Notes: generated from the letters alone by a model not told the origin. A stretch of 64,000 bases of DNA from Schmidtea polychroa (GCA_044892525.1 CM097885.1:18354001-18418000); one strand, 5' to 3'. Shown: positions 10,091 through 56,766, counted from the first letter of the stretch. Numbers and translations: made by a program.

Positions 10091-11550
10091 TCAGTTATTG
10101 TCCTCTGTCAAACAACTCTTGTCAAATATATAACTTTTCCTAAGTTTATATTTCTTCAATATTCCATTGTTGTAATAATATCTAGAAAGTAAATATGATT
10201 GAAATGGAAAAGGTAAACAAATGAAAACCTCAAATTTCTTGACATGGATTCGTAAGTCATAGTTTCATTGCCTTGAAATATTCCCCATAAAGCGGCAATC
10301 TTTTTAGTATTTTTGATGATGAAAGATCCTTCTTGTTCGTCTATCCACGCGACTCCCATGTCATGTTGTCTTGCACATTTATCTTTTAGAACAAATAAGA
10401 AGAATTGCCACATTTCCATCCGACATGAAATGTTGTCACGAACGTTCTCAATAATTTCTATTTGTTTTCTTGTTAACTCAAAATAAAATTTCGATTTTTT
10501 CGGAATGGGTCTCAAACTGATATCTTTTACTGATCTTGAAGGTTTTGAACATTTCCTGACGTCATTAGAGGAAGAGTCAGAAACTTTTTCATTATATCTA
10601 TTATTTTGTAACTTAAGATTGGAAGGTTGTAATTTTTGATGATTTATCAATTCCTTAGTTATGTAAGAATCTGCAGTCATGAATCCCGAGGACATATATC
10701 CACTATCATAATTCAGTTTTGGTAATTTATAATTATTATCATTATTATTTTCATTTCCATCAAAATGGCAATTATCAAAACTTCTTTTTTTGTCAGTAGA
10801 TAAAATCGAATTGTCTAATTCTTTCGGGTTGATTAGTCTATGAATTAGTTTTGGTTTTTTCTTCGTATGAATTTGATTTTGAATATTTACAAAATCATTA
10901 GGAGCAGATTCATATACATAATTTTCAGTCATATAACCAGACATATTATTTGCCATTGGTGTATATAAATGGGCGTTGGAATAATTTGGATAGTTACTGT
11001 TAGGTAGACTTATATATCCGGATGGGATTCCGAAAGGTTGGGGCATAAATTGTAGGTCATTGTTATTGTGACTGTTGAATAATTGATGATTGTTGTTTAT
11101 GTTCAATAAATTTTGATTCGAAATAAATTGGTTATTATTATTATTATTATAATCATTTTGCAATGAAGTATTATTGTTTATTCCAAATTTCGATTCATAT
11201 TGATTATAATTCTGATTGTAAGGATTATAAATAAAGTTATTAGACATTGATGGAGTCAATGGATCTTGAGGAAGAGGTTGATCGATTAATGGATTGAACT
11301 CTAAAATAACAATGAATAAAGTCAGTGAATTTTTAAATATTACCAGGTAAATCTTTAATGATTTCATCGAATACTAAAGAAATTAGAACATATAATTTAA
11401 ATGGTATACTTAATAAATTGCTTACGTTCATTGTCGGGCAAAAAGCTATCAGATTGATCTAAATTTAAATAAATTAAATAAAGTTAATTAAAATATTTAA
11501 TAATTACCTTTAAAAATCTCGTCGAACCAAGCTTGATCATCCTGGTTCAT
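10091..11550 (-). CDS. ETS-domain transcription factor (paralog 1), 5 exons
   Basis: Exons 11550-11508, 11458-11426, 11373-11344, 11300-10229, 10181-10091 with GT-AG introns of 43-52 nt keep the frame open. C-terminal MWQFFLFVLKD...W...F...IAALWG...MTYESMSRNLRYYY..GIL.K...Y.F matches the ETS consensus. N-terminus is acidic, then N/Q/P-rich. Confidence 0.9.
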
Positions 11551-15324: not shown

Positions 15325-17503
15325 TATAATGTTCGCGTTGGTCGTATAATTGTCATTATGTCAATTAACTGATCTCTATAAACTATCTCCATACTAATCG
15401 AGATTTTATCGTTTCATCGGTGAATTGGCATTACTTCATTGATATCGTCACTGGTTCCATGAAGTGAAAAGGCATAAGTTCAATTGAAACGAAATAATAT
15501 AAAAAATTTTTAATGTGGAACTAACTTAGTGGCCGCCTTATATAGTAATTTTTAACCAATCATAATTAAGTCGGGTTGTTTTTTGGTTATTTTTCTTTAT
15601 TCTTTATTATTTTATTGTTTTTCTTATGTATTATTTTGTTTTATTTTGTTATTTTATTGTTTTATTAGTTTTCTTGTATTTTGCGTAATTTCGCCTATTT
15701 TTGTTGGTTTTTGGGCGTGTAACGGCCTATTTTCAGTTTTTCTTTTAATTTTAATTAGTATTTCGTATTTTTATTTATGTTTTCCTATTTTCTTGTTTGG
15801 GTTATATTTTCTTATTCCTCATATTTTATTATTTTGTATTCTTATTTTATTTATTACTAAATTTAATTATTTTATTTACTTTTTCTTTCCTGTTTTTTCT
15901 TCCTCCATTCAGTTCTCAGCCATTAACCGCCCAACAACTATTTTTTTGTTCAGCCCAACAGATCCTACATTAATTTTAAAATTAGATTTCTAAAAACAGA
16001 CATTAATAATAGGGTTTAAGCAAAAAGATTTATTTGATAAATTTGTGAAAAAATCAGTTAATTTTTTAGTTGATCCAAAATTTATAATGTTACAATGTAT
16101 ATTTTAAAAAAAATGTTCAAAATCCCCCCCCCCCCAGTGGGGATAATTTGAAGATGATCCAAAAATTGTTTTTCTAGAATTTCCCAGGACTTGTGTATTA
16201 CTCTAATAAGTTGTTCTAAAGTTTAGAATCTAAACCAAAGTTTTATATAGAACAACATGAACCTAATAGTTTTTTGCATTAAATTAACAGTTTTCTTGGA
16301 AAATTGTGCGTTTTAAAACATACTTTTTGAAAATTTATCTACTTTTCTACTTTTTCTCAAATTGCCCATTCAATTTCCAGCATTATTCATAATTGTTATT
16401 GTTATTTAGGGTTATAAAATGATGATTTGTCAAAAATATGATAAAAAAACTTCTGTGAACTGTAAACTCAAATACATAAGTTTGCGTTATATAGGATAGC
16501 CTAGTGTACACCTATGTCAAATTTCGTATCGATTAGTCACTCCGTTTGTCTTGTCTAATTAAACAAAAATGTTATAATTTCTATATGAAAATATGCAGTT
16601 TCAATCTCCCTTTAATGGAAAGAGAACGTTTTAGTCATGATAATATAAGAAATAAGAGAATTTTATTTTTCTATTGCTCTAAATTCTGTTACTAGGTGCT
16701 TTAATTTTTCCTTAACTGCCGTTTTGACTTATAGTCTAAGCAAGGATCGCAATTACCATTAAGATGAACACCGTGTTTCAGCTTTTACATAATTATCCTT
16801 GGAATGGTTGGCTTTCTTCGCGGATACTGAACGTCCGCTTTTCTTCCATAGATCAGTTTACTTGTGTTCTCGAATAATGTTGTCATTACCTTTTCGGGAA
16901 ACAGAGTATTCTAGTTTTGCCTACCGGCCTCACTCATACTCTTTTACGTCAGAATACTAGGAGTAGATAAACTACCGGATATTTAAACTGTTGTGTGTAT
17001 CTATTGCAAACTGTTTAGATCATTTATTAAAAATAGTAAATGAAAACATTTCAATCATTTTTTGCAAGTTTTTTGTAATCTTTAGAAACACAAAAAACAT
17101 GTTGAAAAAATTTTTTAATCATTAATTATTTGGAAAATTTACTATAGTTGTGAATAAGATTCATTGAAAATATATTGTTGAAGAATATTAATTTTTAATT
17201 AATTTACTTTGATTTGAGAAATTCGGAAATTTTTATCTAAGTTATTTAAATTTGTGATTTGTAGTTTATTGGAAGTTAGAGAATCTGAAAAATTTCGAAT
17301 TTAGTTTAATTTAATAAAGTTTTGTGAGATCTCAATTTATTATTTGAGTATTTTATATTTAAATTATTTTTGAATACTTGAAACGATGGATATAATTAAT
17401 ACAAGCAACGGTGAAGTTCTGGAAAATTCAGCCAAATTTTCTTCCAAATTTAAATTTAAAGTTAAATTCGAATGTCTTGAAAGCTCAGAAGATGATTTGG
17501 AAT

Positions 17504-17580
17504 GAAAATTAATTCATGTCAGCAGCGCCTCTAATGCAGATTTAGATCAAGTCCTTAATATTTGGACCAATTCCTGTTGG
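17504..17580. repeat. 77-bp direct repeat, left flank of viral insertion
   Basis: Identical by eye to 20121-20197 (GAAAATTAATTCATGTCAGCAGC...CCAATTCCTGTTGG). Confidence 0.95.
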
Positions 17581-20062
17581 GTTGTAGACTTCGCTTTCAT
17601 TGATTGTGCTCGCCGGGCCTTTAGCAGAGTACCCAAGGACAGTCACCTTTACGCCTATATTTGCAATTAACTTCAGTCGAGAATATTCGTAGGTAAACTC
17701 CAAATCAGTAGGAGTGTGAGAGTATGTTGTGATGTTGATGTCGAATACTATCGGAGCAAAGCCTTCCCTTCTGCTCCACTTTTGGCAATTTTCGAGATCT
17801 AAATAAATGGAGCCTAATGTTCTACTATTTAATTTAGTGCGACCCAATTCCTTACAAAGTTCACATAAAGGCTTTTGAACTTTCACTAAGCTTTTAAGAT
17901 CCCTCACAGTTATATATGTCAGAAATTCATCTAACATTCTTATCTCGACCTGTTCACGGTTGATGCTGCCTTTCCACAGACCAGGCCCAGTGTAAATTCC
18001 CTTGCAGTAGCGCTGTCTAATAATGAACCCGCCGATAGTACAGCTTTGAGAATTCTCTAACAACTCTATTGAGCATGGTTTTCCAGAAGCAAATCTAGTA
18101 AAAATGTAGAGAATCCTGGATCCCTCGTCTAAATCAAGTATAAAATGAGTCTCTTCCTGCATGTCGTCTCTTATTAATTGGAAATAGTCCTTGAATATTA
18201 GCAGAACTGTTTGTTTTGATCCGCCGTCAGGGCACTTAGATAATCTCCACAATTTAGTTTTGAGTGATAAAAATGATTTATCATTTTCAGCCTTTTCAGA
18301 ATATCTTGTAGTCAAACTTTGTTGTAAAGAAAATCTTGGCCAATAGCAGTTGACGGCTGCTTCGGAAACAGTGCCAAAAACAGTACTGCATTTTCTAATT
18401 GGCCCAGTGATTTCTATGCATCTGCTTTTTGAAATGATGGACGATAAGAAGGAGTGTAGGCTGAATGCATTTGGGAACGGGCTTTTCTGAATCGTCTCCT
18501 CAAATGTCTCAGACAGCCAAGGGAATAATAGCTGATATTTTGAAAAAGCAGCAGCTTTCAAGAGTTTCCCACCTTGTATTGGTAGATGAAACCACTTTTC
18601 TTTGCACAATGCTAACAGTGGAAAGTTGGAAACCACTGCCTCTCTTAGGACTCGAACTGCCACAAACTTGTTCCTCAATCTGTCTGAAGAGACTAGAGTT
18701 CTCTGAGAGAGTTCAAAATTAAAGCGGATCAAACTTTTGAAAAACACTCTCTCAGGGAACAAAATCTTCATCCAGTGAAGAGATTGTCATAGGGAATTCC
18801 TTAATGAGATCTCCTAGATCCTCCTCTTCTGATGAGTCGTCATCTATCTCTCCGAGCCAGGCGTCACAATCCTCATCTAGCTCGCACATGTCAAAGTCTT
18901 CAGAGACATTCTGCGCTTTGGAATAATCCAACAAGCTTAAATTCTCGGTTTTTTGCACGTTTTCAATCTTGGTGCCAATTTCTTCATATAGGCTCGCAAA
19001 CCCTTTCATTGCTAGCAGTTTCTTCACCTCTGTTTTCGACCATTGAGGGTATTTCCTTACGACTGCTCTGCTCTCATTCACACTAAGATGGTGATTGCAT
19101 ATAACGCTCCATTCAAGCAGCTTGAAGCCTGGCTGAGGTTTTATTCCAGGGTTGTAGACTTCGCTTTCATTGATTGTGCTCGCCGGGCCTTTAGCAGAGT
19201 ACCCAAGGACAGTCACCTTTACGCCTATATTTGCAATTAACTTCAGTCGAGAATATTCGTAGGTAAACTCCAAATCAGTAGGAGTGTGAGAGTATGTTGT
19301 GATGTTGATGTCGAATACTATCGGAGCAAAGCCTTCCCTTCTGCTCCACTTTTGGCAATTTTCGAGATCTAAATAAATGGAGCCTAATGTTCTACTATTT
19401 GATTTAGTGCGACCCAATTCCTTACAAAGTTCACATAAAGGCTTTTGAACTTTCACTAAGCTTTTAAGATCCCTCACAGTTATATATGTTAGAAATTCAT
19501 CTAACATTCTCCACCTCTAACATTAACCACCTCTATGTTGTGATGTTGATGTCGAATACTATCGGAGCAAAGCCTTCCCTTCTGCTCCACTTTTGGCAAT
19601 TTTCGAGATCTAAATAAATGGAGCCTAATGTTCTACTATTTGATTTAGTGCGACCCAATTCCTTACAAAGTTCACATAAAGGCTTTTGAACTTTCACTAA
19701 GCTTTTAAGATCCCTCACAGTTATATATGTCAGAAATTCATCTAACATTCTTATCTCGACCTGTTCACGGTTGATGCTGCCTTTCCACAGACCAGGCCCA
19801 GTGTAAATTCCCTTGCAGTAGCGCTGTCTAATAATGAACCCGCCGATAGTACAGCTTTGAGAATTCTCTAACAACTCTATTGAGCATGGTTTTCCAGAAG
19901 CAAATCTAGTAAAAATGTAGAGAATCCTGGATCCCTCGTCTAAATCAAGTATAAAATGAGTCTCTTCCTGCATGTCGTCTCTTATTAATTGGAAATAGTC
20001 CTTGAATATTAGCAGAACTGTTTGTTTTGATACGCGGTCAGGGCACTTAGATAATCTCCACA
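17581..20062 (-). other. Endogenous viral element: C-terminal part of a Phenuiviridae/Bunyavirales-like L protein (RdRp), rearranged as three overlapping segments
   Basis: Intronless and GC-richer than its flanks. Motifs KEKWF...FPWLSETFEETIQKSPF...SKSRCIEITG and IGGFIIRQ...YTGPGLWKGSINREQVEI...LCELCKELG parallel phlebovirus L as I recall it (SDKWF...WLEDT...SKPRTVRITG; IGGF..PQ...YKGKGVWTGVMEDTHVQI...LCDDLG, cap-binding region). Segments A 17581-~18771, B ~18752-19510, C 19534-20062. Confidence 0.85.
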
Positions 20063-20120
20063 TAGAAATAATTGATTCTGGAATTATTTTTTCACGATTC
20101 ATGTATAAGATTTTGTATAA

Positions 20121-20197
20121 GAAAATTAATTCATGTCAGCAGCGCCTCTAATGCAGATTTAGATCAAGTCCTTAATATTTGGACCAATTCCTGTTGG
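20121..20197. repeat. 77-bp direct repeat, right flank of viral insertion
   Basis: Identical by eye to 17504-17580. Confidence 0.95.
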
Positions 20198-20431
20198 TCG
20201 TCATGATTTTGTTCTTGATATTCCCTCTTGATGATAGTATCGGTGTAACTGGAAACAATTCATAAAAATCAACAATTAGTTCGAATCGATTATTTTGTCA
20301 GCAATGAATATGAAAAAGAAGAAATGAATTTTGTTCATTTTGTACAAAATTTTACTTCTACCGAAACATATCGTAGCAGACCGTGGTTCCTTTTGGGGGG
20401 GCACAATAAAATTTCAAAGGTATAAAATTCA

Positions 20432-20832
20432 TTAAAAGATTATTTAAACGTTAAAGAGTTTAACAAGTCAATCAATCCTGATAGAGATGTAGCTTATGGT
20501 GCTGTTGTTCAGGCTGCTATCTTATCTGTAGACATGAGTGACGTTGTTAAATATTCATTGTTGTTTGATGTTGCTCCATTAATATTGCATATTGAAACCA
20601 CTGGAGGAGTCATGCCAGCTCTTATTAAGAGAAATTCTACCATTCCAACAAAACAAGCTCAAACTTTTTCAACATACGCTGATAACCAACAAGGTGTCTT
20701 GATTCAAGTTTTTGAAGGTGAAAGAGTCATGACTACAGACAACAATCTAACTTGGTAAATTCGAATTGTCGGGAATGCCACCTGCTTTAAAAGGTGTTCC
20801 TCAAATTGAAGTCACATTCGATATCGATGCCA
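20432..20832 (+). pseudogene. HSP70 internal fragment (pseudogene)
   Basis: [21 protein letters not shown]...[34 protein letters not shown]...[11 protein letters not shown]. Frameshift near 20750; truncated at both ends; conserved residues eroded. Confidence 0.92.
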
Positions 20833-22439
20833 GTTTATCGATGGGCCAATCAGCAAAAAATCAGATAGCAGGTATGATTGCAATTTGTCACGATCTGATT
20901 TTTAAAAATTCTAAAATTCATTATAATAATATAATTTGGGATAAGGTATCAATTTTGTCATTTAACCGCACCTTATATATCACAATAAATAAACAATTCC
21001 TTGAAGCATGAAATATTCATATGGATGGGTGCAATAGCAAATGTTTACGTTATTGCAATGTGAACTGTACAATTATAATAAAATATATATATATAATTCA
21101 ACTATTAAATACAATTATAAGTACAATTATAATAAAATATATATATAATTCAACTATTAAAAGTGAATTATTAATAAATATTTAAAATGTAAAGTATATA
21201 ATTGATTTAATAACTGTGATTAGAAATCGGCGACGGATATGCCATTTGTAGGGGTCTCGAAGGTGACTCTTTGTAATTTGATATATAAATACATACATTT
21301 AAACAAAATTTAAAATAAGAAGGTCTAGATCAGGGTCATAACGATTTTCGCAAGCAATCATTAAAATTATGGTAATAAAAATTAATTTTATGAGTAATGG
21401 GTAATAGGCCCAACGTAAAGGGCCTAGGAGGTTACCAAGGGATATCCTACCCCCTTTAAATCAGCAGATATTCCTGAAAACATTGAATGGAAATGTTGTC
21501 ACGCTTGATTTATCCCTTCGCTTATCTCCTGTATAAACTCTGTTCTAAATCAAATGAACTAAAATAGATTAAAAAAATTATTAACCTCCAGTTAAACCAA
21601 CAATAATAAAAAACTTCAAATTTACAAAAATTCGTGCAGAAAATAAATGGAATTTTATTTTTAATTTTTGGAAAATTCTGGTAGATTATCGATCTTGGTT
21701 TTATCGTTTCCGTCGTATCTTGAGCTGTGTTCGATTGACTTTCGGTTTGATTCTTTTCTTCTCTGGTTTTCATCTCTGCTTTAGTCTTGAGGTCTCATTA
21801 TTTGAGATTCTCAACTTACTTGTTCTTATATAAATTATCAAATAACAATAAGGCCTGGTTATAAACATTTAATAAAAAATATTCACCTAAAAGAAATGAC
21901 ATGCTTTTACTTTTTGATATCGGATAGGTGCGTGTTATATATTTGTGTGTATGACAGTTGATGCTTGTTATATTATGTATGCAAAAAAAATTGTGATATA
22001 AAAGTCAACTAAAATTCTTTTAAATTTTATGCTGTCGTAGTTTGAAAACTTTTGAAGGATTTCCTTCAAAGTTTTTTAGCAAGGATAAGACTTTATTTTA
22101 TGGGGAGATTAACTGATTTTTGCGCGCTTATTTATATGAGATTTTATTTAATGAATATTAAATATTATTATTTCCGGCTTATACGCACGGGATATTTAAC
22201 TAATTTTTCACCAATGTTTTTAAGATTTTCTTATTATACACTATATTAATTAATTATATATACGTTGTTCGTTCAATAATGCATCGGACTAACTAAGAAA
22301 GAAAAAACACAAAAAACTGAAACAAATTTTATCAAATACTAGTTCGAAAAACACATTTAATTATTTTTCTATATAATTACCATTGGCAACAACCGATTTA
22401 TTCCATCGAATAACCAAATCTTGAAATACATCAGCAAAC

Positions 22440-22670: not shown

Positions 22671-24481
22671 ATTTGACAAAAAAAATGGAATTAGAAGTAC
22701 TTACGTCAGCCAATCAGATTATTTAATTTATGCATCTAAACAAGCATACATGTAAATGCTAAAACCAATTGGTAATATATAATTTCGATTGTAGAATTTG
22801 ATTGACTTGGGTTTCATTGAATCTTCTCTTGGGCTAAAATCACTTGTTAGGAGAAAAGCACTTATGGGACTGCCACTGTCATATAACATTAGTTTATTGT
22901 AATTTATCCTTATTTTCCTTAATGTAAACTCCAAGTTTCGTTGAGATGGATTGGATTGTATAGAGTCTGGTTGTGTTACGAGAGAATTAATGTGGGTTAA
23001 ATCGTTTGCTGAATTTCTCGGTAGCTTATGCTTCGAATTAACTTTTTCTGTGGTTCTTTCTTTTTTTGTGTTTTAGAGTTCTAGAGAGTTTTGTGGTTTT
23101 CCTTTTGTCTGTTTCTGTGCTGCTTTCTGATTGTTGTTTTTTGGTCGGTTGTTTTTAGTTGTGTTACTTTGGGTATTTATATCCTTTGGTTTATCTCAGG
23201 TAGGACCTTACGCTATCTGAGTTTTCATTGAAATTTCTTGCGGGTGTCTAGTCTCACCCTCGTTAATTATTGTACAGCTTTAGGTCGGTGCTGTTGAATC
23301 AGCACCTACTTTTTTGAACTAAAATTTGTTGAATTTGTTACTATGTTGAAATTTTTCAAAATATAATTTTCTAGGTTTTTTGTATGCCGTTTTCCTTGAC
23401 TTCCTTTCCTAATTTATATTTTTCGTATTTTTTTGTTTAAATGAAGTAATTTAATTATGTTTTTTGCAAAACACTTGGAACACGAAAATAAGTTTTATTA
23501 TTTCTATAATTATACAATAACAATTATTTATTGAACAAGTATTAGGTAATAAACAAAGAAAGCAAGATATAATATCAAATATATATAAAAAATGCAATTA
23601 AAATTTAAAATGTTCACGTTTCAAATACTTGTATTGTAGTTTTGTGAGAATTTGTGTATTCTGACCTTGGAATAAGCACGATTCATCCAGTCGTTCGTAG
23701 AAACGATGTTTCATATCATTTACATCGGTTAATTAATATTGTATTAATATTGACCAAAATTATCCTAGTTTGACGTAAAATTTCTCAAATTGCCCATTCA
23801 ATTTCCAGCATTATTCATAATTGTTATTGTTATTTAGGGTTATGTTCTGAACTTGACTATATAAAAATAACTATCTTGTTCGTCGATTGCTTTGCATGTT
23901 TTGCAGAAGATTTGTAAGAGCCCAGCAGAGCCTCCTTTAAAACTTTAAATTGTACGGCTGCAAAAGAATAATTTTATAAATTATTATAAACTTTTTTTTT
24001 CAAATTTCACCACTGATTTCTTTTCCATTGAAATTGTATATAAACATCATGTTATTACAAATTCTTTTTCAAAACTTGGTTATATACAATATGTTTAATA
24101 CATCGTGTGACGTTAAAAAGTTGAAAATAGCAAAGCCTATACAGAAATTTCATGTGCTAGAATATCAGGTTGCCATTGTTTATTACAGTCAAACAAACAC
24201 ATTTGTTCTGTTTGATACTAGATCAGGGATTACCAACACGTCGATTGCCGAGCAAGTTTTGTTCGATCTCAAAGTATTTGAAAGTTATGTGATTTCTTAA
24301 TTTCTTTTTACTTGGTAGATCAGTATTTTTTTAAAATGCCATAGTCTATCGCAAGTTTAAACAAGTTGGCCACCCCGCTATAGATTATAAAAACAAATTG
24401 TAATCAACCTGAATTGTGTTGTGCGAAATATGAGCCAAATGAGCATGAAAAAACATGAAATTATAGAATTTATTTAAAAAA

Positions 24482-26238
24482 TTAATCATGGGACAATAAA
24501 TGCAGTGGAACTTTGAATTCGGAAATAATTGATTCTGGAATTAATTTTTCACGATTCATGTATAAGATTTTGTAGGTAGCTGCAATAGTTGATTCTGATA
24601 CACCCATAATATCTCGAATTTCTAAATATTATGATTTTAAAAACGTTAAATTTTTGAAAATATTACGTTTTTTTGAAATTTTCTCGTTCATAAGTAAGCC
24701 TGCCATATATATAGACGCTGATATCAAACTACTTGGTTTCTTCTCTGAAAATATTTTCGATGCATTTGCAATGCATATTGCTAGTTTTTCAAGAGATTTA
24801 TTTTTAATTTGCAACTGGTAACAGAATCGAGGAACTTGGTCAATAATATTTGATGACTCACAAGCCAATCCAAGAGCAACTCGCACTTTTTTTATCATTT
24901 TTTGAATATGCTTTAAATCTACTGCTGACACATCACAAATTTCTTAAAATTAAATATGATTAATAAATATTATATATAAAATTCTCTATAAAGATTTCTA
25001 TTTCATATAAGGTTAGTTACTCATAATTAATAAAGTATGTGAAAATAATGATTTGGCGACGCTTCATCACGCGACATTTCCTCAATTAAAAACTGAAATT
25101 TAATATTTTTACTGAAAAAAATAAGATTTTATATAAATTTAAAATTTGTTTTAAATTGTGTTTTCAAATTAATATTTTCGATAATTTCTATAATTTTAAG
25201 AAATTACTAAAAATTAAGTATAATTTTAATTAATTTGTTGAAAACGCAAATATAAAGGTTTATTTTTTGGTAATGATTAACCTTAATCCGTTTAGTTTCA
25301 AATTTGATTCCTTTTAGATTCAAATTATTCTACAAATAGCTTATATGAATGCGATTGAACTATTAAAATAATTTGAGATTAGCTATTTATATGTCAAATA
25401 ACGGAGTTTGATTTTTTTTATGTTATAAGCGAACAGTGATTGTTTTAATTCAATATTCTTTAATTATGTATGATAATAGTCATTATTTTTATTCCGAATG
25501 ATTTTTTATTAAACATTTTTTATGTTCTATTTTTCATTTTATATGTAAGTGCGATATATGCTATGTATTATATTTAGAAATATAAAGATCAGACCTTTTA
25601 CACTTCTTTCTATATTTCTATTTCGACAAACAAGAAATAAACAAGCACAAGATATTTCGTCTTTTTTCTTTCTTGTAAATCCTTTTATTTGAGTCAATTT
25701 TTTAACATATTCCATTGCAGCTAACTGAAATATATAATAACAGAATTAAAATAATTCATGTGAAAAATAACCTTTGTATTGTTATCTACTTTAATCCTCT
25801 CCCCAAAAGCCAATATGGAGGCCCTGCATTGTCTAATCATTCGGTCAGCTGGAGTGTCTACAACTCTATTTTTATATCGTTGTTCTCCATTTTCGTTTAA
25901 ATGTTTCACATCATATGACTGCTTAATAGTAATAGATGTTGCACTATTTGAACTGATGGCATTTTCAACTGCTCCAACTCGAGATTGATCTTCACCTGTA
26001 CCATCATTTGCAAATGATCGCCATTCACTTGAAAAATCAATGACCCTTCAAAAAAAGAGTTTATAATTATTTTGATTAATTTTATTACCTATCACCAACA
26101 ACCAATCCACAGGTTGAACAAATAAGATCTCCAGCTGAATAATCCTCTATTAAAACGGAATTAGGATGGTATTTACAAGCGAGTTTACTTAATAAAAATT
26201 TAAATTACTTAAAATTTTTTAATAATAACTAACATCAT
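24482..26238 (-). CDS. Transcription initiation factor IIB-like protein (divergent), 6 exons
   Basis: Exons 26238-26234, 26187-26089, 26045-25772, 25724-25595, 24942-24667, 24621-24482, all GT-AG with an open frame. Zn ribbon CKYHP...[24 protein letters not shown]-reader SEWRSFAND...SRVG, two cyclin repeats (CACLFLVCR...RSVKEIC; PRFCYQL...SASIYMA...[12 protein letters not shown]). Confidence 0.92.
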
Positions 26239-27149: not shown

Positions 27150-30129
27150 CTTGAGGATCATTACATTTTTGGAGCCATTTGTACTCCTGTAGCCAGCTAT
27201 CATTAAAATAACATTTCCTTTTTTTGTTGTAATGTTCATTTTAGCAGTATAGTTGTATTTTAAAATTTTTAATGATATTCTAAATAATATTTAAAATAAT
27301 TTCAATTCTTTATTTAATACTTAATATTAAAAATACTTAATTTTAACAAATCTTTATTTAAACTGATTTTATAAAAAGAAATAAAATCAAATACATACAA
27401 ACATGCTTAAAAAAATTTTCAGAACTTTTTAAAATATTTTAATCTGATGCCCTTGCTTTGAATTTTAACGAGAAAAATATTTTTCTCGTTAAAATTTTTT
27501 TTGTTAAATATAAAGGGAAAATGGTTAAAAGTGAGGTAAATAGTTCAAAGTAGGACAATTTCTCTTTCATGTTGTACGTAGGACTAATATCCAAATTGTA
27601 GGACCGAATTCGTGAAATCTACTTAAACTTGCATTCTATTTCCATAATTTTTCCAAACTGACTTCAAAAAGTGTTTTTCAAAGTGTGTTTACCACCGCTT
27701 GTACATTGGTGGGCATGATTTAAATACAATTTATGTAAAGTAGTCGATTAATGTTAAAGGGTTAAATAATGTCTACCTCAAATTATTGTATACTAAAAAA
27801 ATATTCAAAAAATAATATACGTAATTAACAATAAAAAAATGCCGGTCCATATGTTAGAAATACGATTTTGCAAAGCGGTCTTCAACGTGTTAAATACTAA
27901 TTTTCATATTGATTAATGTCTTAAACTTAATATTTAATCCTATCAATACCGTGAAAATATATAAATCCTTGCCACAATCTGGCCATTTACAATATTTTTG
28001 CTGATACCTCGAAAATAGGAATTCAACAATTTATTGGTAAAATAGTTGGTAGTAGTTTAATTTTTTTGAAGTATATACAAATAGAATTTAATACTTTTAG
28101 AAACTATTGACTATTAAAAGATATTTCTTTATTAATAAAATGGCCTAATTTCACAATTCTATTCGTTCATTTGAAAAATTAATTTTACTTGATTTAATTG
28201 TTATAACGGTTTTTCTACATTTTAAGAAAACAAATTATTTTATTTAACAAAATTACAAAAACAAATTTAGTTTTTTCATAATTTATTATTTATAATGCTC
28301 ATTTCTAAAATTATACTTGCCCAATAATTTTCAATAATTTCTTTTGTTTAGGTAAATAAAAATAGAAACTTACCTAGTCAGTATGAAAATTAATTTGAAT
28401 TCGTGAACTCTACTTAAACTTGCATTCTATTTTCATAATTTTTCCAAACTGACTTCAAAAAGTGTTTTACTAATGGGTTGCTTACAGTTACATTCGGGAC
28501 TTTTCTAACTTTTTGTTTATTTTCTGTCGTATCAAAAGTTTAAAATAACTAATCCATCTTTCCTTTTGAATTCTTCTGATTTCTTAGTATTTCTTAGTGA
28601 TGATCTCGAATCGTCTTGCATCAGGTAAGCACTATAATCAGGATAAATTTTCTGTATACAAATGTAACCAACTATATCGTGACCATTTTAATTGTAATGC
28701 AGTATAAAAATCACGACTGGCATTGAAACTCAGGATGGCACCTTCGTTCGTATTTTCAGTGAAACTGCGTGATCAATCGTGACTCTAACAATGTAAGGAC
28801 TCGGTAATAGCCTTTCCAATTTACTATAACTAATCGAGACCGAGATACATAACTTCATTTCATCTTAATCGATTCCTGGCCATATAAAGTTCACGGTAGC
28901 TTCACTAAATAATAAAAAAAGATTTACCGGGGATGGCGATGATGATGCCAATTACGGAGTGGTACCGTCGATGATGTAAACTCAATCGATGGACCGTATA
29001 GCCAACTCAAATCTGAGTGTATGCCATGATTGATAGTCCTCAGTGTTACAAGTAAAATTTCGTTAAAAACCAGTAATAATAGTGACGATCAATAAAAATT
29101 ATGTTATCGACAATAATGGTCGAGACGATTTACTGTACAAAAATAAGGTCAAATTAGTTAGTGGCATACGACACCAGTAGAATGACCACTCGCTTGCAGA
29201 TCAATTGCCGTATGGGAGATGATACGTGGCACTAATCAACATTCTCCACACAATTAATCGTGGAACAAAAAATAGTGAACTGCGAGATCGCACAACGAGG
29301 CTAATATAATTACAGATGGATAACACCAGAGATAATTTTTTGGTTAATTCGACAATTTTAATGGCTCACCATGGCTCACAAATGGCTCATATGAAGGCGT
29401 CCTAAAAATTTTACTAAGTATTTTTGATAGCGTATATATGGTACTACAAAAAAATTTCTAAGAAAAATCTGAAGTGGTACTAACAAAATAAATAATAATG
29501 AACAAATCAAAACCAAATGAAGTCTGAATCAAGGTTTTATTTACATCAACTATATTAATAATATTATTATTATTATCTTTAAAATAATTTAAATTTCCAA
29601 TATTCGTTACAGTTACCATGACTTTGTGGCAAAATTTTGAATTTGAAATGTTTATTTTTTTAATTAATTAATTTACTTAAATTTTTATCTACATAAATCA
29701 ATATTTTTTGAGTGAAACTTTCTATAAGCTCTTCATAAAATCAATTCTAATTCGGTTTTTTAATTTTCGACATGTAAAATCAAATTTTCATTAGATACAA
29801 AACACATGGTATCGGGATTGCAATATTTCCCAAGTATAATTTTATTATCTTCCCAGTAGTGCTAAAATTACTTTTTAATAATTATTATCTACAAAGTTAT
29901 ATTTAAAAATGGTGTACTGGTGGTAAAATTTTGACAACGTGATTTCAAAAATTTCAAATTAAAAATTTTATTTTGATAATATTTTAAAATTCAAAGATGA
30001 TTGTAAATTCTATCCTCTATTTTGTGGTACTTATAGAATTTAGTGACCAGTAAGATAACATTAATTTTGTGAACGTAAATGAGCATTAACAATACAATGA
30101 TTTTGAAATGAATTAATTAAATCAAAGTA

Positions 30130-31424: not shown

Positions 31425-33110
<1,686 letters not shown>

Positions 33111-39849: not shown

Positions 39850-40452
39850 ATGGAACTAAGAAATGATGCTGTTTATTAAATAGTCGGACCAAGTGGTAGT
39901 GGAAAAACTTTGTTTGTTTGCAAATTACTAAAATCACATTTATTCAAATCAAAATTTAACAAAATTTATTGGCATAGAGGTGCTGATGAAGAACACGGAT
40001 TAACTCACGATAATTTCTGTAAATTAAAAAATATGAAAATAGTAAAGCGATTTGATAAAAAGTGGTATAGTAGACCAAAGAAGGGAGATGTCATAATTAT
40101 TGATGATTTGTATAAAGAAGCTAATAAAGAAAAGAATTTCAATAATTTATTTACCAAAATCAGTAGACACGTGGGTGTAACGGTTATTTTTAAAACTCAA
40201 AATTTATTTCTTCAGGGCGGTGCACATAGAGCTCGTAATTTAAATGTTCAATATTTCGTTGTTTTTAAAAACCCTAGAGATGCAACAGTTATTAATTTTC
40301 TTGCAAAACATAATCGTAATTTTCTGATAAATGCTACAAAACAACCTCATGGATATATATTTCTTGATTTCACTCAACAGTGTCCTGATGATTTACGAGT
40401 GAGAACCGATATTTTCAATAAAGAATGGTCAATGGTTTATAAACAAAGTTGA
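39850..40452 (+). pseudogene. A32/FtsK-like packaging ATPase
   Basis: Walker A GPSGSGKT, Walker B IIIDDL, SRH and QNLF...RNLNVQY..VFKNPRD motifs; premature TAA at 39877. Confidence 0.9.
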
Positions 40453-40579
40453 AACCATGTTTAACTGATTATGTTTTTGAGAGCGAGAGTTAAAAATTTT
40501 GGAAAAGGTACTGAAAAAGAAAAAGTTAAAGTTCCACCAAAAACGAGTTACACATATTTGTTACAGAAAATTTCCATCA

Positions 40580-40990
40580 ATGAATTTCATCTCAAAAAAT
40601 CCAATACCTAAACCAATCAAAAACCTTAAACAAGTAAAAACAGTAAAAAATCATCGTAGTTTTCCGTTTTTTAATGCATTGTTAAAGGCACCGAGCATGA
40701 AAAGAATGACTATTTTACACTAATTTCCTAATATCGTTTTTGGTGATTTACTTGATATTATACTCAAAATAGTCAAAGGCAAGACTATAATTAGCAAATC
40801 TGACAAAATTATTTTAAACAAGTACCAGAAACCTCTTTTGATGCTAGTAAATAATAAAAATCGCAAACAAATGAGAAAAATTATATATAAACAACAAGGA
40901 GGGTTTCTTGCTGCATTAATAGCATTGGCATTATCATTATTAGTGGCATTATCATTATTAGGTCTATTAAAATCATCATAAACAATAGGT
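40580..40990 (+). pseudogene. pX-like core protein remnant
   Basis: Basic ORF pieces ending KQQGGFLAALIALALSLL, resembling the adenain-cleaved GGFLPAL motif of adenovirus pX; frameshifted. Confidence 0.55.
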
Positions 40991-41042
40991 GCTAATCCTT
41001 CATTACCTAATTTAAAATTTGATTTTAAATATTCATGTTGTA

Positions 41043-42060
41043 ATGGAGAAGATATGGACGAACCCAAAAGACGAAGCAGGTTTTGGTGGAGTCGAAAAGT
41101 TAAAGAAAAGAGTTCTGAATTCGAAGATGGAAACCCAGAATTGGTTATCAAGTCAGCTCGCATACAGTTTGAACAAGCCGATGCTGAAAAGATTTCCAAC
41201 AAGACCATATAAAACATTTGGTATTGATGATTCATGGCAAATGGATTTGATGGAAATGATAACATATTCAAAGATTAATAAAGGATACAGGATATTTTGA
41301 CATGCATTGATGTTTACAGTCGTTTTGCTCGAGCAATTCCTACCAAGGCAAAGTCTGCCGAAGAAATATCCAAAGCAATTAAACTCATGTTTAGAGATGG
41401 ATATCCAGAAAACTTACAAACAAATTTGGGTAAAATATTTGTAAAAATTCATTATTTTTCTTTTGGATAGGAATTTTACAACTGTAAAATGAAACAAATC
41501 CTGGATAAACTCAAATCAATCATTACTCTGTGCATTCTCAATTCAAAGCCGATCATGTTGAAATATTTAATCGAAAATTGAGAGATAAGCTGAAAAAAAT
41601 GTTTGTGCATCAAGGTAATAAGACATGGATAAATGCTTTGCCTAAAATTATATATGGTTATAATCATTCATCGCATCAAAGTTTGAATGATTTACAGTTT
41701 TCGAAAATGGCTGAAAAAATTAAAAAACTAAAATATAAAATCGGTTATCATGTTAGAATTAGTAGAATTAATGCATCTCCATTCATAAACATCTTTCATA
41801 CAAACTGAAGTGATGAAGTCTTTGTAATCTCGAAAAACAATACTAAACAATATCCAGTAATATATGTCATTAAAGACTGATCAAAATATTGTACAAGGGA
41901 AATTTTATGAACAAGAATTCCAAGTCATTCCTTCAGCAAAAGTTTTTAGAATTCAAAAAATATTGAAAACTACAAAGAATGGTGAGGATAAACAATACTA
42001 TGTCAAATGCCATAGATATCAAAACCCGACATGGATATGAGCAAAAGATTTAGTAAAGTA
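41043..42060 (+). pseudogene. Retroviral-like (c-integrase) with C-terminal chromodomain
   Basis: WQMDLMEM...CIDVYSRFARAIP...LQTNLGK/EFYN...VEIFNRKLRDKL...YNHSSH...QYYVK; several frameshifts and stops. Confidence 0.9.
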
Positions 42061-43050
42061 AATTTTTATACTCTTTTACCGAGTAATAGTTGTCCTCTTA
42101 TTCATCCAGATAATGAAGCAAGTAAATTTATGGTAGAACTACAAAATCCAATTTATTTACATGGTGAGTGGGAAGCGGCTTTATTGGATTTCACATTTGT
42201 GTACAAGACATTTCCATTCTACAGTAAATCCAGAATCGAATACAAAAAGAAGGAAACAGTTACAAAATATAAAAATTTGGTAATTGATAACGTAAATGAT
42301 TTTATTGATATATCAAATCCTTACGATCGAGATGTTACAATGTACATTGATCGAGATTTTCTTTAATTTAACTGTCATCATACTCCATTTCATGTATCAT
42401 TTTAATATTTGGCGAATGCAAAACGATTCGAAATAAAGACATTGAGATAAAGAGCGATACAGATATATTGAAGATACGGAATCCTGGATTTACCAAGGTT
42501 GGTGCGACTACAGAACCAATTAGGCTAACAGTACAGTTTCCGTTTGATATATCTAATACAGTTACATTTAATGACAATTTATAGAACCGAACTCGATGAA
42601 TTGCAAACATATTTAATTCAAAATTGTATATATATTTTCAAATCTCTAGAACTTCAAGAAAATAAATATTTCAGATTCTCTTTGAATAATGACATTTCTG
42701 AAATTAGCTTTGACAAAAACCTGATAAAAACATTATGATTACCTAAAGCAAAATATCAACAAGACGATAAAATTAATGAAGGATCGAGTATTTAAACTTA
42801 ATCATCAAATGTTCATCTATACTAATATTATTGAACCCATAATTGTTGGTGATTCCGCGGTTCTTCTATTGAAATCTATTTGGATTGAGAAACATGAGCA
42901 AGATGATGTTGTACAAATAATAATGGAAAATCCTATGTATTTACAAGTTTCAACCTCGTGTATAAACAATATAGAAACGATAATTCTGGTAAATTAATCG
43001 ATTTTGCACAAGATTCAAAAACTCATTTGACGATACATTTTCGTAAAGTC
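42061..43050 (+). pseudogene. Minor capsid (penton-like) protein
   Basis: FYTLLPSNSC...PDN..SKF.VELQNPIYLHGEWEAAL at the N-terminus and MFIYTNIIEPIIVGD...LLKSI...PMYLQV at the C-terminus; frameshifted. Confidence 0.75.
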
Positions 43051-43051
43051 G

Positions 43052-43423
43052 ATGCCTAATTCCGATATCATTAGTATGTATAGTGGTAGCCAAGCTGGTG
43101 GTGAATTACCACATTTTATTGGTAAACAATATGGATCTGGTTGGTTGCGGACGATTGGTAGATTTGCACTCCCGATTCTTAAACGTATAGGTATTTTTGG
43201 TATGAAAACTGCTAAAGATGTCATTATGAATGATCAAAAGATATTACCATCTCTGAAAACTAATGCTTTATCCGAACTAGGAAAAGTTTTACCGGGTGTT
43301 GCGGGTATGTTTCAAAAAGAAGAAAAAACAGAACCACCAGCAAATTTTCCAAAACGTAAAAAACACAGGTCATCATATATAAACAAACGGATGAGAGGAC
43401 ATGGAACTATATTTGAAAAATGA
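43052..43423 (+). CDS. Maverick conserved QxGxG/amphipathic-helix protein (probable virion core or membrane-active protein)
   Basis: Intact 123-aa ORF: QAGG.LPHFIG.QYGSGWLRTIGRFALPILK with a basic C-terminus; lies between penton and hexon and overlaps the hexon start (ATGA). Confidence 0.7.
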   Translation: MPNSDIISMYSGSQAGGELPHFIGKQYGSGWLRTIGRFALPILKRIGIFGMKTAKDVIMNDQKILPSLKTNALSELGKVLPGVAGMFQKEEKTEPPANFPKRKKHRSSYINKRMRGHGTIFEK

Positions 43424-44355
43424 TTTGTGGTAAATCTGAATTGTGTATATTTGCTCGACCATCGCCTCAAGCTGTTATCGAATATGGAGAATTCGAAGAA
43501 GTTTTTCCAATGAATTCTATTACAGATAGTAGGAATGATATGGAATTTTACATCAATGGTTCTCAAACTGAATATTTAGATTTGAACGATACTTTATTGA
43601 CTGTTCAGATCAAGGTTGTAGATAAAGATAAAAAGGCTTTGGGTGATCTTGATGCTACGATACCTAATAATTTCTTGTTTCATACGCTTTTTAAAGATGC
43701 TATTCTTGGATTTAATAATATCAAGATTGAAGGTGGCAACAATACATATATTCACAAGGCGATAATAGAAACTATTTTAAATTATAATACCGATACTAAA
43801 AATACATGTCTTACTCTTATGGGCTATGCGGCAACTGATGACGAAAGAAAAAAGTGGAATAAAGGTTCAAAGATTTTTACCATTATAGACTTTCTAGATC
43901 AACAAAAATATTTACTTCCAGGAGTCAATGTGCACATTAGGTTGAAAAGAACCGATTCTTCATTATCACTAACTAGTGCTAATGGTCAACCAATATGTTA
44001 ATTAGTTAATATGGATCATACAGTGCTTCAAGCTCAATTTTCAAAAACTTTGGTGTTACATCCTTGTCATTATCTAAAAATACTGATTATAGAGAAACAT
44101 ATAATCAAAATTTTGATAATGATAATTACTGTGTTACATATATGCAAAGTATTGTGAGATGGGTTATTTATGGGTTATTTAGATAAAAATTTGAATTGTG
44201 GAATTGTGATTTGAATCAGAGTTAATTATCTCATAATGGAAATTTACGATTAGATATAAAGTTTGCAAAAGCTATTGCAGAAGCTGTGCATGTTATAATA
44301 TATGGAGTATTTGAAAATGAGGTACAAATTACTGCAAATAGACCTGCTTGTATAG
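43420..44355 (+). pseudogene. Major capsid protein (hexon-like), internally deleted
   Basis: KSELCIF..P..Q..IE.G...E.FP...MEFYI.G....YLDLNDTLL at the N-terminus; GNLRLDIKFAKAI...VIIYGVFENEVQI at the C-terminus. Confidence 0.85.
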
Positions 44356-46764: not shown

Positions 46765-51039
<4,275 letters not shown>

Positions 51040-51172
51040 CTTGATACGGGAATTATTTTTTTATATTAATCTTATTTCTGCAAAATCATTAATCCAATAT
51101 CAATAAACAATTACATTTATTTTAATATCTAATAATACTATAACACAAGTATAAGCTAATTAATATCTAACA

Positions 51173-54014
51173 CAGGCATGAGCAACATACGGCCCGCGGG
51201 CCTCTTTTGACCGGCCCCCAGTGTTCATTGATCCACACCATATAACCAGGCCCTTGATAAGCTTTCAGGAATGTATGCAGTTGACGTTAGAGCTACACCA
51301 TTAGTACAAATACGCATTTAATATAAGCGTGGTGGTGCAGCAGTAAACTTTTTAATTATGACATTTTCCTTATAGATTAGCATAAACATGAAAACATCTT
51401 TTGTCTATGAACAAGATTCAGTAATATAAAATCTCATAAGCGAAGACCGAATTTTATTGCAAAATATTTATAAATCTTAAACTATAAATTGTAAAAGAAA
51501 TTTTCTATCGATAAAGTTTGTAATTCTCATCATTTATCAAAAATGATATAGGTTTATAAATGTAGTAATAGATGAAATAAGCTAATTAAGGATTTCAGTA
51601 TTTGTTTTTGGTTTATCTAATTTAATATTATTCCTTCTCGTTTTAATAATTACTTTTAAAAGATTTGTTTATTTTATCAAATTATTTTCATTTGAAATTT
51701 ACAATTTTTAAATAAAAATGCAAGTTGAATATTTATTTATTTTTCATTGTGTTCATATAAATCAGGCATGGGCAACATTCCACTGATATTTCCAATAATT
51801 CTGATGAACCACAGTTGAGGATGAGCACTATTACAAAAAAACGAAAAGTTGACAGTGAACACCGAGTATTTAATGATAAGTGGACATCGGATTATCTGTT
51901 TGTAGAATCAAACAATATGCTCGTTTGTCTTGTTTGCTCGCAATCAATTTCCGTTAAAAAGGAATTTAATGTAAGACGACATTACCAGACTCAGCATGCA
52001 GAAAAGTTCGATCAGATCCAGGGACAATTAAAGAAAGATAGGATCGAATCTCTCCGAAAAGCACTTCTAGGGCAACAGACATTCTTTATCAAAGTTAATA
52101 AAGAGGTTGAGTGTGTTGTGAAGGCGAGTTTCATGATAAGTGAGATAATTGCCAAGAAACTGAAACCGTTTTCTGATGGGGAGTTTGTCAAAGAATGCAT
52201 TGATGCTGCTGTGGATTGTATCTGTCCCGAAAAAAATCAACTTTTCTCGAATATCAGCCTTTCTCGATTTACAATCGTAAGACGAATTGATGATATTGCA
52301 AAAAACATTGAAACAATCTTGAAAGAAAAAGCTGAACTATTTCAAGCATATTCAATATGCCTTGATGAAAGCACGGATATGACAGACACCGCGCAGTTAG
52401 CAATTTTTGTGCGTGGGGTTGATTAGGACTTCCACGTTACGGAAGAACTGTTGAAATTAGCGAGCATGAAAGGGACTACAACTGGAGAAGATGTTTTTGA
52501 TGAAATCAAAACTGCATTGGCAGAAAACGGGCTTTTTCTTCCAAAGCTAACAGGAATAACGACAGACGGAGCTCCGGCAACGGTTGGAATAAAAAATGGA
52601 GTAGTTGGTTTATTGAAGGCGGAGCTAGTTAAAATGAAAGGAAGTGAGCAATTAATTGCATCACATTGCATAATCCACCAAGAGAATTTATGTGTAAAAG
52701 AACTAAAGATGGACCATGTGATGACAGTTGTTGTGAAAACAGTGAATTTCATAAGATCACGTGGATTGAATCATCGACAATTCAAAGAGTTTCTCACTAG
52801 CATTGAGACAGAATACTCGGATGTAATTTACTTTAGCGAAGTTCGCTGGCTGAGCAGAGGAAAAGTATTGCATCGCTTTTATTGCCTTCGTGAAGAAATT
52901 AAACTTTTTATGGAGATGAAGTCGAAACCAATTCCGGAGTTATCCGATGCAAATTGGCTACTTGACTTGGCCTTTTTGGTTGACATCACAACGCATCTGA
53001 ATGATCTAAACACGAAGTTACAAGGCTGGGATCAACTGATAAATAATCTTTACGATCATATCAAAGGATTTCAGACAAAGCTAAAACTATGGGAGAATCA
53101 ATTATCAAAGGACATTACGGTACATTTTCCAAATCTAACTGATTGCAAAAATGTTGCAAATTTAGCTAACACGAAGAAATTTAATGAACACATAATTGCA
53201 TTGAAAACACAGTTTTCTTCAAGATTTGCTGATTTTGCCGAACATGAAAATGATTTCAAACTATTTTCTGAACCATTCAGTGTTAATGTTGAGACAGCAC
53301 CAGAATCAAGGCAAATGGAGCTTATTGAATTGCAGTGTAATGGCAATCTGGAAAGAAAGTTTCGTGACGTCTCTTTGATTCAATTCTACAAACTCTACAT
53401 TTCTCAGAAAGCGTTTCCATCAATCCGATATCATTCGCTGAAAATGGTCTCACTTTTCCCCAGCACTTACATCTGTGAACAATTCTTTTCTAAGATGAAA
53501 CAAACAAAGTGCAAAAACAGATGTCGGCTCACTGATGATAACTTGTCAAACGAATTACGAGTAGCAACATCAACTATCAAGGCAAATATTTCAGATTTAT
53601 GTTGTGATAAGAAGTGTCAAATGTCACACAGACCAAAACCAGAACAAGATTGATATTGATATGTTGGGTATATTTGAGTAGTATATGCAAACTTGAGAAG
53701 CATAAAAAATATAAATTCGAACAATCCAGAGTTTGTGCGATTAAATAAACTATAAATATGGGATTATTAAAGTTAAATTTGGGTATTTTCATAGTTTGTA
53801 TATTTTGCCTTCCAATAACAACTAGTATATAGTATATAATATATAATGTATAATATATAATATAAGCCTAATCAATTAAATTTAAATGATCTTTGCTATT
53901 AAAAAGATATATTATTGGAATATATATTAATAAATTCGTGCTAAATACATCCGGCCCCCGAAACATTTTCAAAGACTGAACTGGCCCCTAACAAAACCAA
54001 GTTGCTCATGCCTG
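51173..54014 (+). mobile_element. hAT (SPIN/Buster/Charlie-type) transposon
   Basis: TIR CAGGCATGAGCAAC / GTTGCTCATGCCTG; perfect TSD ATCTAACA. Confidence 0.95.
51821..53653 (+). pseudogene. hAT transposase with a single in-frame stop
   Basis: ORFs 51815-52426 and 52451-53653 are in the same frame, separated by TAG at 52424. Motifs DESTD, TTDGAP, HCIIHQE, VRWLSRG, STYICEQ.FS.M. Confidence 0.93.
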
Positions 54015-54252
54015 ATCTAACAAATTCATACTTTCCATTTATCTACCCTAATGTACCATAATAAATAAAAAATTAATTAAAAATTTAAAAAAAGATAGTA
54101 AAATTCTTAGGTCCTGTTCGCTTCGCTTCTCCAACCCCATTAGATCATGGGGTTAATAATAATTTTTATTTAAAATATAATTTTTTGGGGATACATCAGG
54201 CAATCGACTTATTGTTTTTACGGCCCATTCTCTTTTCTTGCACACTCTAGGT

Positions 54253-56710: not shown

Positions 56711-56766
56711 CTCTAGGTGATGTTTCAACCCACCTATAGTGTATGGGAAGTTTATCATATGTAAGT

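Follow-up and report, generated by a model that had tools for sequence, protein, structure and literature searches.

A likely recent three-piece insertion of a phenui-like virus L gene between 77-nt host duplications in the planarian Schmidtea polychroa

The window analysed here is a 64,000-nt stretch of the Schmidtea polychroa genome (GCA_044892525.1, CM097885.1:18354001-18418000), which lies at 18.35-18.42 Mb of a 271.6-Mb contig in a 781-Mb genome and has a viral insert inside it. The viral part occupies exactly 17581-20062 on the minus strand, and self-comparison divided it into three overlapping pieces of an L gene on the same strand, referred to below as segments A, B and C. GC content is 40-44% in the viral block versus 26-30% in the 2-kb flanks. 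The features of the locus, in window coordinates, are the following.

17174..17580, no strand assigned: left part of the dispersed host repeat that received the insertion; paralogues align from about 17175
17504..17580, plus strand: left copy of the 77-nt target duplication, 100% identical to 20121-20197
17581..18812, minus strand: segment A, an L gene piece of about residues 1455-1870 (Tricladiphe virus numbering), the region of the thumb ring, lid, cap-binding domain and following strands
17700..18048, minus strand: cap-binding domain in segment A; the end at 17700 is estimated from the length of the SFTSV domain
18760..18790 (about), minus strand: frame break close to the start of segment A, placed by ORF overlap and paralogue alignments
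18800..18812, minus strand: zone of the in-frame switch from B to A; the alignment of a B-tail paralogue stops at 18800, and those of A-start paralogues begin at 18811-18812
18813..19510, minus strand: segment B, about L residues 1754-1985; 19149-19510 repeats A, and 18813-19148 is a unique acidic tail piece
19511..19533, no strand assigned: 23-nt linker built by local copying; one of its 9-mers derives from 19500-19508, and another is repeated within the linker
19534..20062, minus strand: segment C, about L residues 1645-1817, a 529-nt copy of 17723-18251 with 3 differences from A
20065..20117, plus strand: 53-nt copy of unique host DNA, with 1 mismatch to 24522-24574 and 2 and 3 unassigned bases at its sides
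20121..20197, plus strand: right copy of the 77-nt target duplication, identical to the left copy
20198..20971, no strand assigned: right part of the host repeat; two paralogous loci (L022, L042) align through to 20971-20972
24522..24574, plus strand: donor of the 53-nt piece, 4.4 kb downstream, inside longer contigs of sequencing runs X5 and X6

Read along the plus strand, 2 shared nucleotides are followed by A, B, the 23-nt linker, C, 2 nt, the 53-nt copy, 3 nt and the second 77-nt copy, and the whole inserted block amounts to 17581-20120 plus one copy of the repeat. Of the 2,459 viral bases, 1,568 are non-redundant, the remainder being 362 nt of B and 529 nt of C that duplicate parts of A at 99.4% identity. 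Three stop-free frames were found on the minus strand, at 17542-18786 (414 aa), 18752-19516 (254 aa) and 19533-20135 (200 aa), and the ORFs of A and C extend into host-derived DNA. The longest frame within segment A has 402 codons; across 1000 shuffles the maximum was 185 and the mean 82. An earlier note on this DNA had described about 2.5 kb of intronless ORF segments free of internal stops; the segments do lack internal stops, but a frame break interrupts segment A at about 18760-18790. The note had also proposed rebuilding L by joining A to the unique tail of B. That unique stretch exists (18813-19148), but the last ~18 codons of ORF B are, by paralogue alignments, the upstream start of segment A and not the tail of L. 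The acidic tail piece is likewise not the C-terminus of L; one paralogue (L010) runs further in that direction. Microhomology likely mediated the switch from B to A, and the two 9-mers of the linker had shuffle P values of about 0.013 (copied) and 0.004 (internally repeated). The linker, the 53-nt local copy and the 77-nt flanking duplication are features that the earlier note had not recorded.

In a search of 1.84 billion protein representatives, the best match to segment A was the L protein of Tricladiphe virus (residues 1473-1866, 32-33% identity, E = 8.4e-51); 134 proteins passed an E value of 0.001, and the second best stood at 1.5e-28. The segments are colinear with Tricladiphe virus L (1473-1866 for A, 1754-1961 for B), and by alignment the insert maps only to L 1645-1996 and 1473-1879. 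Among proteins of solved structure, segment A matched SFTSV L 1507-1773 (E = 2e-10), and the other matches were also viral polymerases (7 sequences, E up to 1). A Phe (18027-18025), a Gln (18015-18013) and a Tyr (17994-17992) align with F1703, Q1707 and Y1719 of SFTSV L and are putative equivalents of these residues; in SFTSV, F1703 and Y1719 stack on the cap, and Q1707 is also a cap-binding residue (PMC7261188). An AlphaFold model of segment A built from a 44-row alignment had a pLDDT of 83.6. The top six Foldseek matches of this model in the PDB were SFTSV L (E = 5e-16), followed by influenza-type polymerase chains, and phenui-like L proteins were matched as well, so that segment A is predicted to adopt the C-terminal, PB2-like fold of phenuivirus L. 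The three pieces are the C-terminal quarter of a phenui-like L gene, including the cap-binding domain. None of the three viral frames matched a Pfam family, Bunya_RdRp included, and the endonuclease and RdRp core are not in the insert, which had no Pfam match to them and maps to another region of L. A search of the insert with the conserved terminal 8-mers found no segment end. A word-based homologue search with segment A returned nothing among proteins of 696-2000 aa, a size window that full-length L lies outside, and 9 pattern matches in IMG/VR included none that was confirmed.

A quick maximum-likelihood tree of this divergent region (37 rows, with 34 of 45 proteins used and near-redundant ones left out) joined the window piece to two paralogous fossils (100) and placed this group as sister to Tricladiphe virus (SH-aLRT 99); deeper forks had no resolution. 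The nearest company of the window piece in this quick tree of a divergent region was thus the family-unassigned Tricladiphe virus together with environmental proteins. RVFV, sandfly fever and related viruses formed a separate starred clade, with 18-27% identity to the window piece, which fell outside it, and we rejected membership of the genus Phlebovirus as the piece clusters with Tricladiphe virus and not with the phleboviruses. Compared with the L proteins of known phenuiviruses (SFTSV, PDB 8as6, 8asd and 7alp; RVFV), the insert shares the same C-terminal region, the fold and the aligned cap-stacking Phe/Tyr and Gln, but it is a mere fragment, is about 20-26% identical to them and lies outside the Phlebovirus and Uukuvirus clades. 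The earlier note's call of a C-terminal phlebovirus L-like fragment with a cap-binding domain therefore holds for the gene region (by the SFTSV and Tricladiphe matches and the fold) and for the domain, whose three residues align, but not for the genus. Its further suggestions, that the best matches would be viral and the source undescribed, agree with these data: the best identified matches are bunyaviral L proteins, and the closest, Tricladiphe virus, is only 33% identical.

Procotyla is a genus of freshwater triclads. Tricladiphe virus is represented by a complete segment 1 from the Procotyla fluviatilis transcriptome and was assigned to Bunyavirales with no family (PMC9241645, Table S2). 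It resembles the source of the insert in being the best match by a wide margin, colinear, sister in the tree and from a triclad host, but it was reported as exogenous (PMC9241645), whereas the window element is integrated and broken. At 32-33% identity in the insert, and 45% when the RdRp core is compared in a paralogous fossil, the source virus is distinct from Tricladiphe virus and undescribed; by its sequence relationships it was a phenui-like virus and not a phlebovirus. We infer that it infected this host.

The dispersed repeat that received the insert gave 40 scored matches among 161 candidates, with other copies 77-89% identical, and its right part carries an intronless HSP70 fragment (20426-20835; PF00012, E = 3e-30). 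At the 24 paralogous repeat loci compared, the two flanks are joined through a single occurrence of the 77-nt motif, in full or shortened, so the duplication arose with the insertion. Two nucleotides, 17579-17580, are common to the left duplication copy and the viral sequence and constitute microhomology, and a genome search with the 53-nt sequence matched only 20065-20117 and 24522-24574. The junctions thereby show features of polymerase-theta type, namely microhomology and locally templated patches. Features of a LINE-type retrocopy were not seen: such copies end in a 3' tail, either poly(A) or from the element, and have duplications of 10-20 bp, whereas the insert has no tail and its duplication measures 77 nt. 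No poly(A) was found at either end of the insert, which is weak evidence because, to our knowledge, phenuiviral mRNAs have no poly(A).

Other parts of the window hold repeats of related form. An old repeat has, at 16346-16425, an 80-nt insertion that is free of virus, lies 1.2 kb from the viral insert and contains a perfect 63-nt copy of 23781-23843, 7.4 kb off. A perfect 54-nt Helitron-like copy (48108-48161 and 56713-56766) lies at the apparent end of a hAT element 8.6 kb away and is probably a local templated insertion, and a 77-nt direct repeat (27606-27682 and 28397-28473, 95%) around 714 nt of AT-rich DNA is possibly an older insertion with a long duplication.

The insert is an endogenous viral element, combining homology to an RNA-virus gene with covalent host flanks. 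Of 15 sequencing runs listed, 4 from a single study contained about 80% of the insert's words. Contigs of X1, X2 and X3 bridge the A/B junction without differences, and the right junction is spanned in X1 and X3 by a contig of 161 nt that runs from the virus through the 53-nt copy into the duplication. The left junction is crossed by a 58-nt contig with 30 and 28 nt per side, and the linker by an 83-nt X2 contig with 30 nt on each side, both just under our 31-nt bar; short-read contig ends coincide with the predicted copy boundaries. An assembly chimera or viral contamination, the outcome that the earlier note had named as fatal to its reading, is therefore very improbable. The flanks are indeed repetitive, the left junction falls just under the bridging bar, and the runs that contain the insert, which come from one study, may be the assembly's own source. 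Against this, the right host-virus and A/B junctions are bridged by short-read contigs of several samples, the target duplication, local templated copy and frame break are foreign to a replicating RNA virus, and many related fossils lie on other chromosomes. The insert was seen in three samples of that one study, with no contig spanning an empty site. In X5 and X6, from a second study, the unique flanks and the donor were covered and the viral part had almost nothing, which we do not count as absence. Joints that skip the insert were rejected as empty sites: they carry repeat-family variants and occur in carriers too, and so represent paralogous copies of the repeat. We also rejected a second near-identical insert, suggested by a loose contig end at 18167 in X3, because the genome search found only the two copies here. 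No RNA run was among those listed with the insert, which is uninformative on expression.

The duplicated parts also bear on age. Among 1,564 viral lineage-sites there are 4 substitutions and among 260 host ones a single substitution, together 5 in 1,824 (0.27%), a value that is an upper bound on change since insertion because copying errors and viral variants count too. So few substitutions indicate that the insert is young, and the integration is likely to have been recent, as the earlier note had proposed.

The insert is one of many such fossils. Its DNA found 22 further matches in the genome at 66-76% identity, of which a tandem array on C3 accounts for 13 and the region close to the C1 end for 8, with a single one on C4, and a closely related fossil on C3 carries the RdRp core. 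Searching the genome for Bunya_RdRp gave 41 matches among 42 candidates, inspected in part. In five comparisons of the window piece with paralogues, pS was 0.91-0.98 (saturated), pN 0.04-0.13 and amino-acid identity 72-93%. Saturated synonymous sites with low pN indicate purifying selection, so the divergence arose in viruses; and because it arose while viral, the fossils derive from separate integrations of related viruses, some of them amplified later. Copies within one fossil cluster are 99.8-100% identical. The C3 array (G000:C3:41.08-41.13 Mb, L015-L018) consists of tandem 3.0-3.6-kb units with L pieces of about residues 664-1653 and frames up to 629 aa; the units compared were 99.8-100% identical. 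Near the C1 end (G000:C1:269.4-270.0 Mb, L009-L014 and L073) lies a patchwork of L pieces, reverse transcriptase and transposase fragments and intronless host fragments (phosphatase, proteasome subunit, Ulp1 protease), which resembles a region of piRNA-cluster type. One paralogue there, L009, has a break position near the end of segment A in common with the insert, which we set aside as likely chance.

Nucleocapsid-type sequences were also present. Tenui_N gave 5 matches among 10 candidates, with open frames of 147-264 aa that are not tied to this virus; a match to the glycoprotein domain Phlebovirus_G2 was not found in the genome, which is uninformative. One of these loci, L080 (G000:C3:3975677-3978985), holds at 823-2005 a whole N ORF with untranslated flanks, about 1.02 kb, within a repeat. 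An exact 73-nt repeat, which extends to 81 nt if one mismatch is allowed, surrounds it; of 7 paralogous loci, 5 reach the motif, and each of these has it once. The architecture is the same as that of the L insert. Among 11 other viral loci scanned, L080 was the only one with a clear long duplication; L081 and the L piece in L119 show candidate flanking repeats. Three further N fossils, L079, L081 and L083 (G000:C3:4.22 Mb, C2:188.34 Mb and C3:27.57 Mb), have frames of 214-264 aa and 62-87% DNA identity to each other. Judging from their frames, the intact N genes could be expressed.

On balance, we think it probable that the three-piece L insert between its 77-nt host duplications is recently reverse-transcribed viral DNA that was captured during the repair of a staggered double-strand break. 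An RNA virus requires a host reverse transcriptase to become DNA. A persistent infection would have supplied L RNA in germ or stem cells, where a host reverse transcriptase would have turned it into DNA. The break would have had 3' overhangs about 77 nt apart, and a repair polymerase may have primed on the 2 shared bases and copied piece A, re-primed on piece B and then slipped locally to yield the linker; piece C would have been copied next, then 53 nt of the neighbouring chromosome, before joining to the other end, and fill-in of the overhangs would have created the 77-nt duplication. In favour of break repair are the 2-nt microhomology, the self-templated 23-nt linker and the patchwork of segments, because microhomology, iterative local copying and patchworks are typical of polymerase-theta joining (PMC12426944), and breaks with 3' overhangs yield duplications (PMC8355091). 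The virus-free 63-nt templated copy in the neighbourhood, the similar duplication at L080 and the lack of poly(A) point the same way. Against it, the two PolA-family loci found in the genome (C2:2.61 Mb and C2:126.56 Mb) are no more than candidates for POLQ. Also against it stand the single orientation of all three pieces, the scarcity of clear long duplications at other viral loci (1 of 11) and the shape of the junctions, tidy at the 3' end of the coding-sense RNA and messy at the 5' end, as expected of target-primed reverse transcription with template jumps. Size is a further difficulty: most insertions templated by polymerase theta are shorter than 25 nt (PMC12426944), and pieces of 0.5-1.2 kb such as these call for another or a mixed process.

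These objections lead to the strongest competitor, which we consider possible though distinctly less probable: the protein of a non-LTR retrotransposon, acting in trans, would have cut one strand of the target, begun synthesis at 17581 on coding-sense viral RNA, and switched from one to the next of three RNA fragments and then onto nearby DNA; a second nick 77 nt off would have produced the duplication. The shared orientation of the pieces, with a clean primer end and a messy far end, would fit this route, and LINE reverse transcriptases jump templates without homology, the duplication of R9 reaching 126 bp; the usual LINE duplications, however, are 10-20 bp (PMC6895275), and the insert has neither retroelement sequence nor poly(A). 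At L010 an R2-like reverse transcriptase remnant sits about 110 nt before the viral piece, and a reverse transcriptase with GIY-YIG (Penelope-type) and other reverse transcriptase ORFs lie near other copies. The R2-like remnant adjoins only 1 of 16 sequences screened, though, and no long flanking duplication was seen at any of 7 loci around R2-like hits. The available text of PMC3846280 and PMC8557442 supplies no Penelope route to long duplications. Break repair and retrotransposon priming can also be mixed.

Improbable by comparison is the entry of one viral piece first, with the overlapping copies, linker and local copy added later by repair or slippage within the locus. That only 4 sites differ among the pieces, as with copies of one template, and that virus-free local templated insertions occur nearby would suit this order of events; but B passes the end of A, which itself lies directly against the duplication, and to derive both from one colinear ancestor would require extra deletions; a perfect duplication also surrounds the entire patchwork, the 53-nt piece included. 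We give hardly any credence to a host gene, or a domesticated viral gene, for a cap-binding protein. An ATG at 18771 does open a frame of 409 codons, and the cap-binding residues are kept, but this start codon is a consequence of the frame break, the reading frame finishes in host repeat DNA with no sign of splicing or a promoter, and the sequence is too young for selection to have had an effect.

Capture during break repair, our preferred reading, can be set beside known systems. Polymerase-theta insertions and 3'-overhang tandem duplications (PMC12426944, PMC8355091) share its microhomology priming, iterative local copying, patchworks and staggered-break duplication, but most are short and of host origin, whereas the segments here are viral and up to 1.2 kb long. 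The young nrEVEs of Aedes aegypti (CFAV-EVE-1 to -4 and AeAV-like; PMC8048955) are likewise recent, lie in or next to repeats and in several cases were joined from non-contiguous viral pieces. They differ in host phylum and virus order, often lie in LTR or MITE sequence and have known source viruses (PMC8048955), whereas the window insert lacks a retroelement and has its junctions marked by the 77-nt duplication and the local templated copy. Polymorphism and piRNAs have been demonstrated for the Aedes aegypti nrEVEs (PMC8048955). Such elements, bunyaviral ones included, are a well-known class, and the host group is new as far as we found: our search, which subscription papers and the supplements of genome papers were mostly beyond, met no report of RNA-virus fossils in planarian genomes. 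Fossils of DNA viruses (densoviruses) have been reported in flatworms (PMC13055364), and the viral sequences of PMC9241645 are described there, in the text available, as absent from the flatworm genomes at hand.

With neither endonuclease nor RdRp core nor segment ends, the insert cannot replicate and encodes no polymerase; it is a dead fossil, whose role, if any, would be at most that of a source of antiviral small RNAs. Together with its relatives it offers direct genomic evidence that a bunya-type lineage, known so far from one planarian transcriptome, has entered the heritable cells of a flatworm repeatedly and, it appears, recently, and its well-preserved junctions, which most old fossils have lost, allow one to read how DNA of an RNA virus entered a chromosome. 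By analogy with mosquitoes, one may speculate further that planarians hold a running heritable archive of bunyavirus infections, in which a capture route leaving duplications of ~75 nt writes viral cDNA into stem-cell chromosomes, the fossils, of which many lie near chromosome ends in patchwork regions and some have intact N, feed a PIWI-type antiviral memory, and the present insert is one such event observed very soon after it happened, its source virus still in circulation; we regard this larger picture as doubtful. In planarians, stem cells are within easy reach, PIWI pathways exist and RNAi is simple, so which enzymes integrate RNA-virus cDNA, and whether such inserts protect the host, can be tested outside insects.

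Several minor observations concern the host genome and the rest of the window. Mitochondrial COX1, which is multicopy, is open under table 9 with TGA as Trp (13 TGA codons); AAA occurs only twice and is not decisive, and the host COX1 ATA codons presumably lie at conserved Ile positions. A small contig (L046, G000:C433) carries a COX1 without TGA codons, unlike the host mitochondrial copies, and is probably a bacterial passenger. TTAGGG arrays were present at 1 of 7 contig ends examined, and at the G000:C4 end (L055) a TTAGGG array is followed by a TTAAAG-type array at the very end. Taken with the triclad source of the nearest viral relative, the mitochondrial code and the TTAGGG repeat make a planarian host likely. 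Within the window, two minus-strand ETS-domain genes with Asn-rich regions, likely paralogues, lie on either side of the viral insert (10156-11373 and 31439-32757); they match at 75% in DNA, and the first has a confirmed Ets domain. At 39880-44001 are an A32-like ATPase fragment and an ORF with no Pfam match that we take to resemble a Polinton capsid gene, and 46847-56417 holds PIF1-helicase (Helitron-like) remnants followed by two hAT/SPIN-type transposase ORFs, one with 654 open codons.
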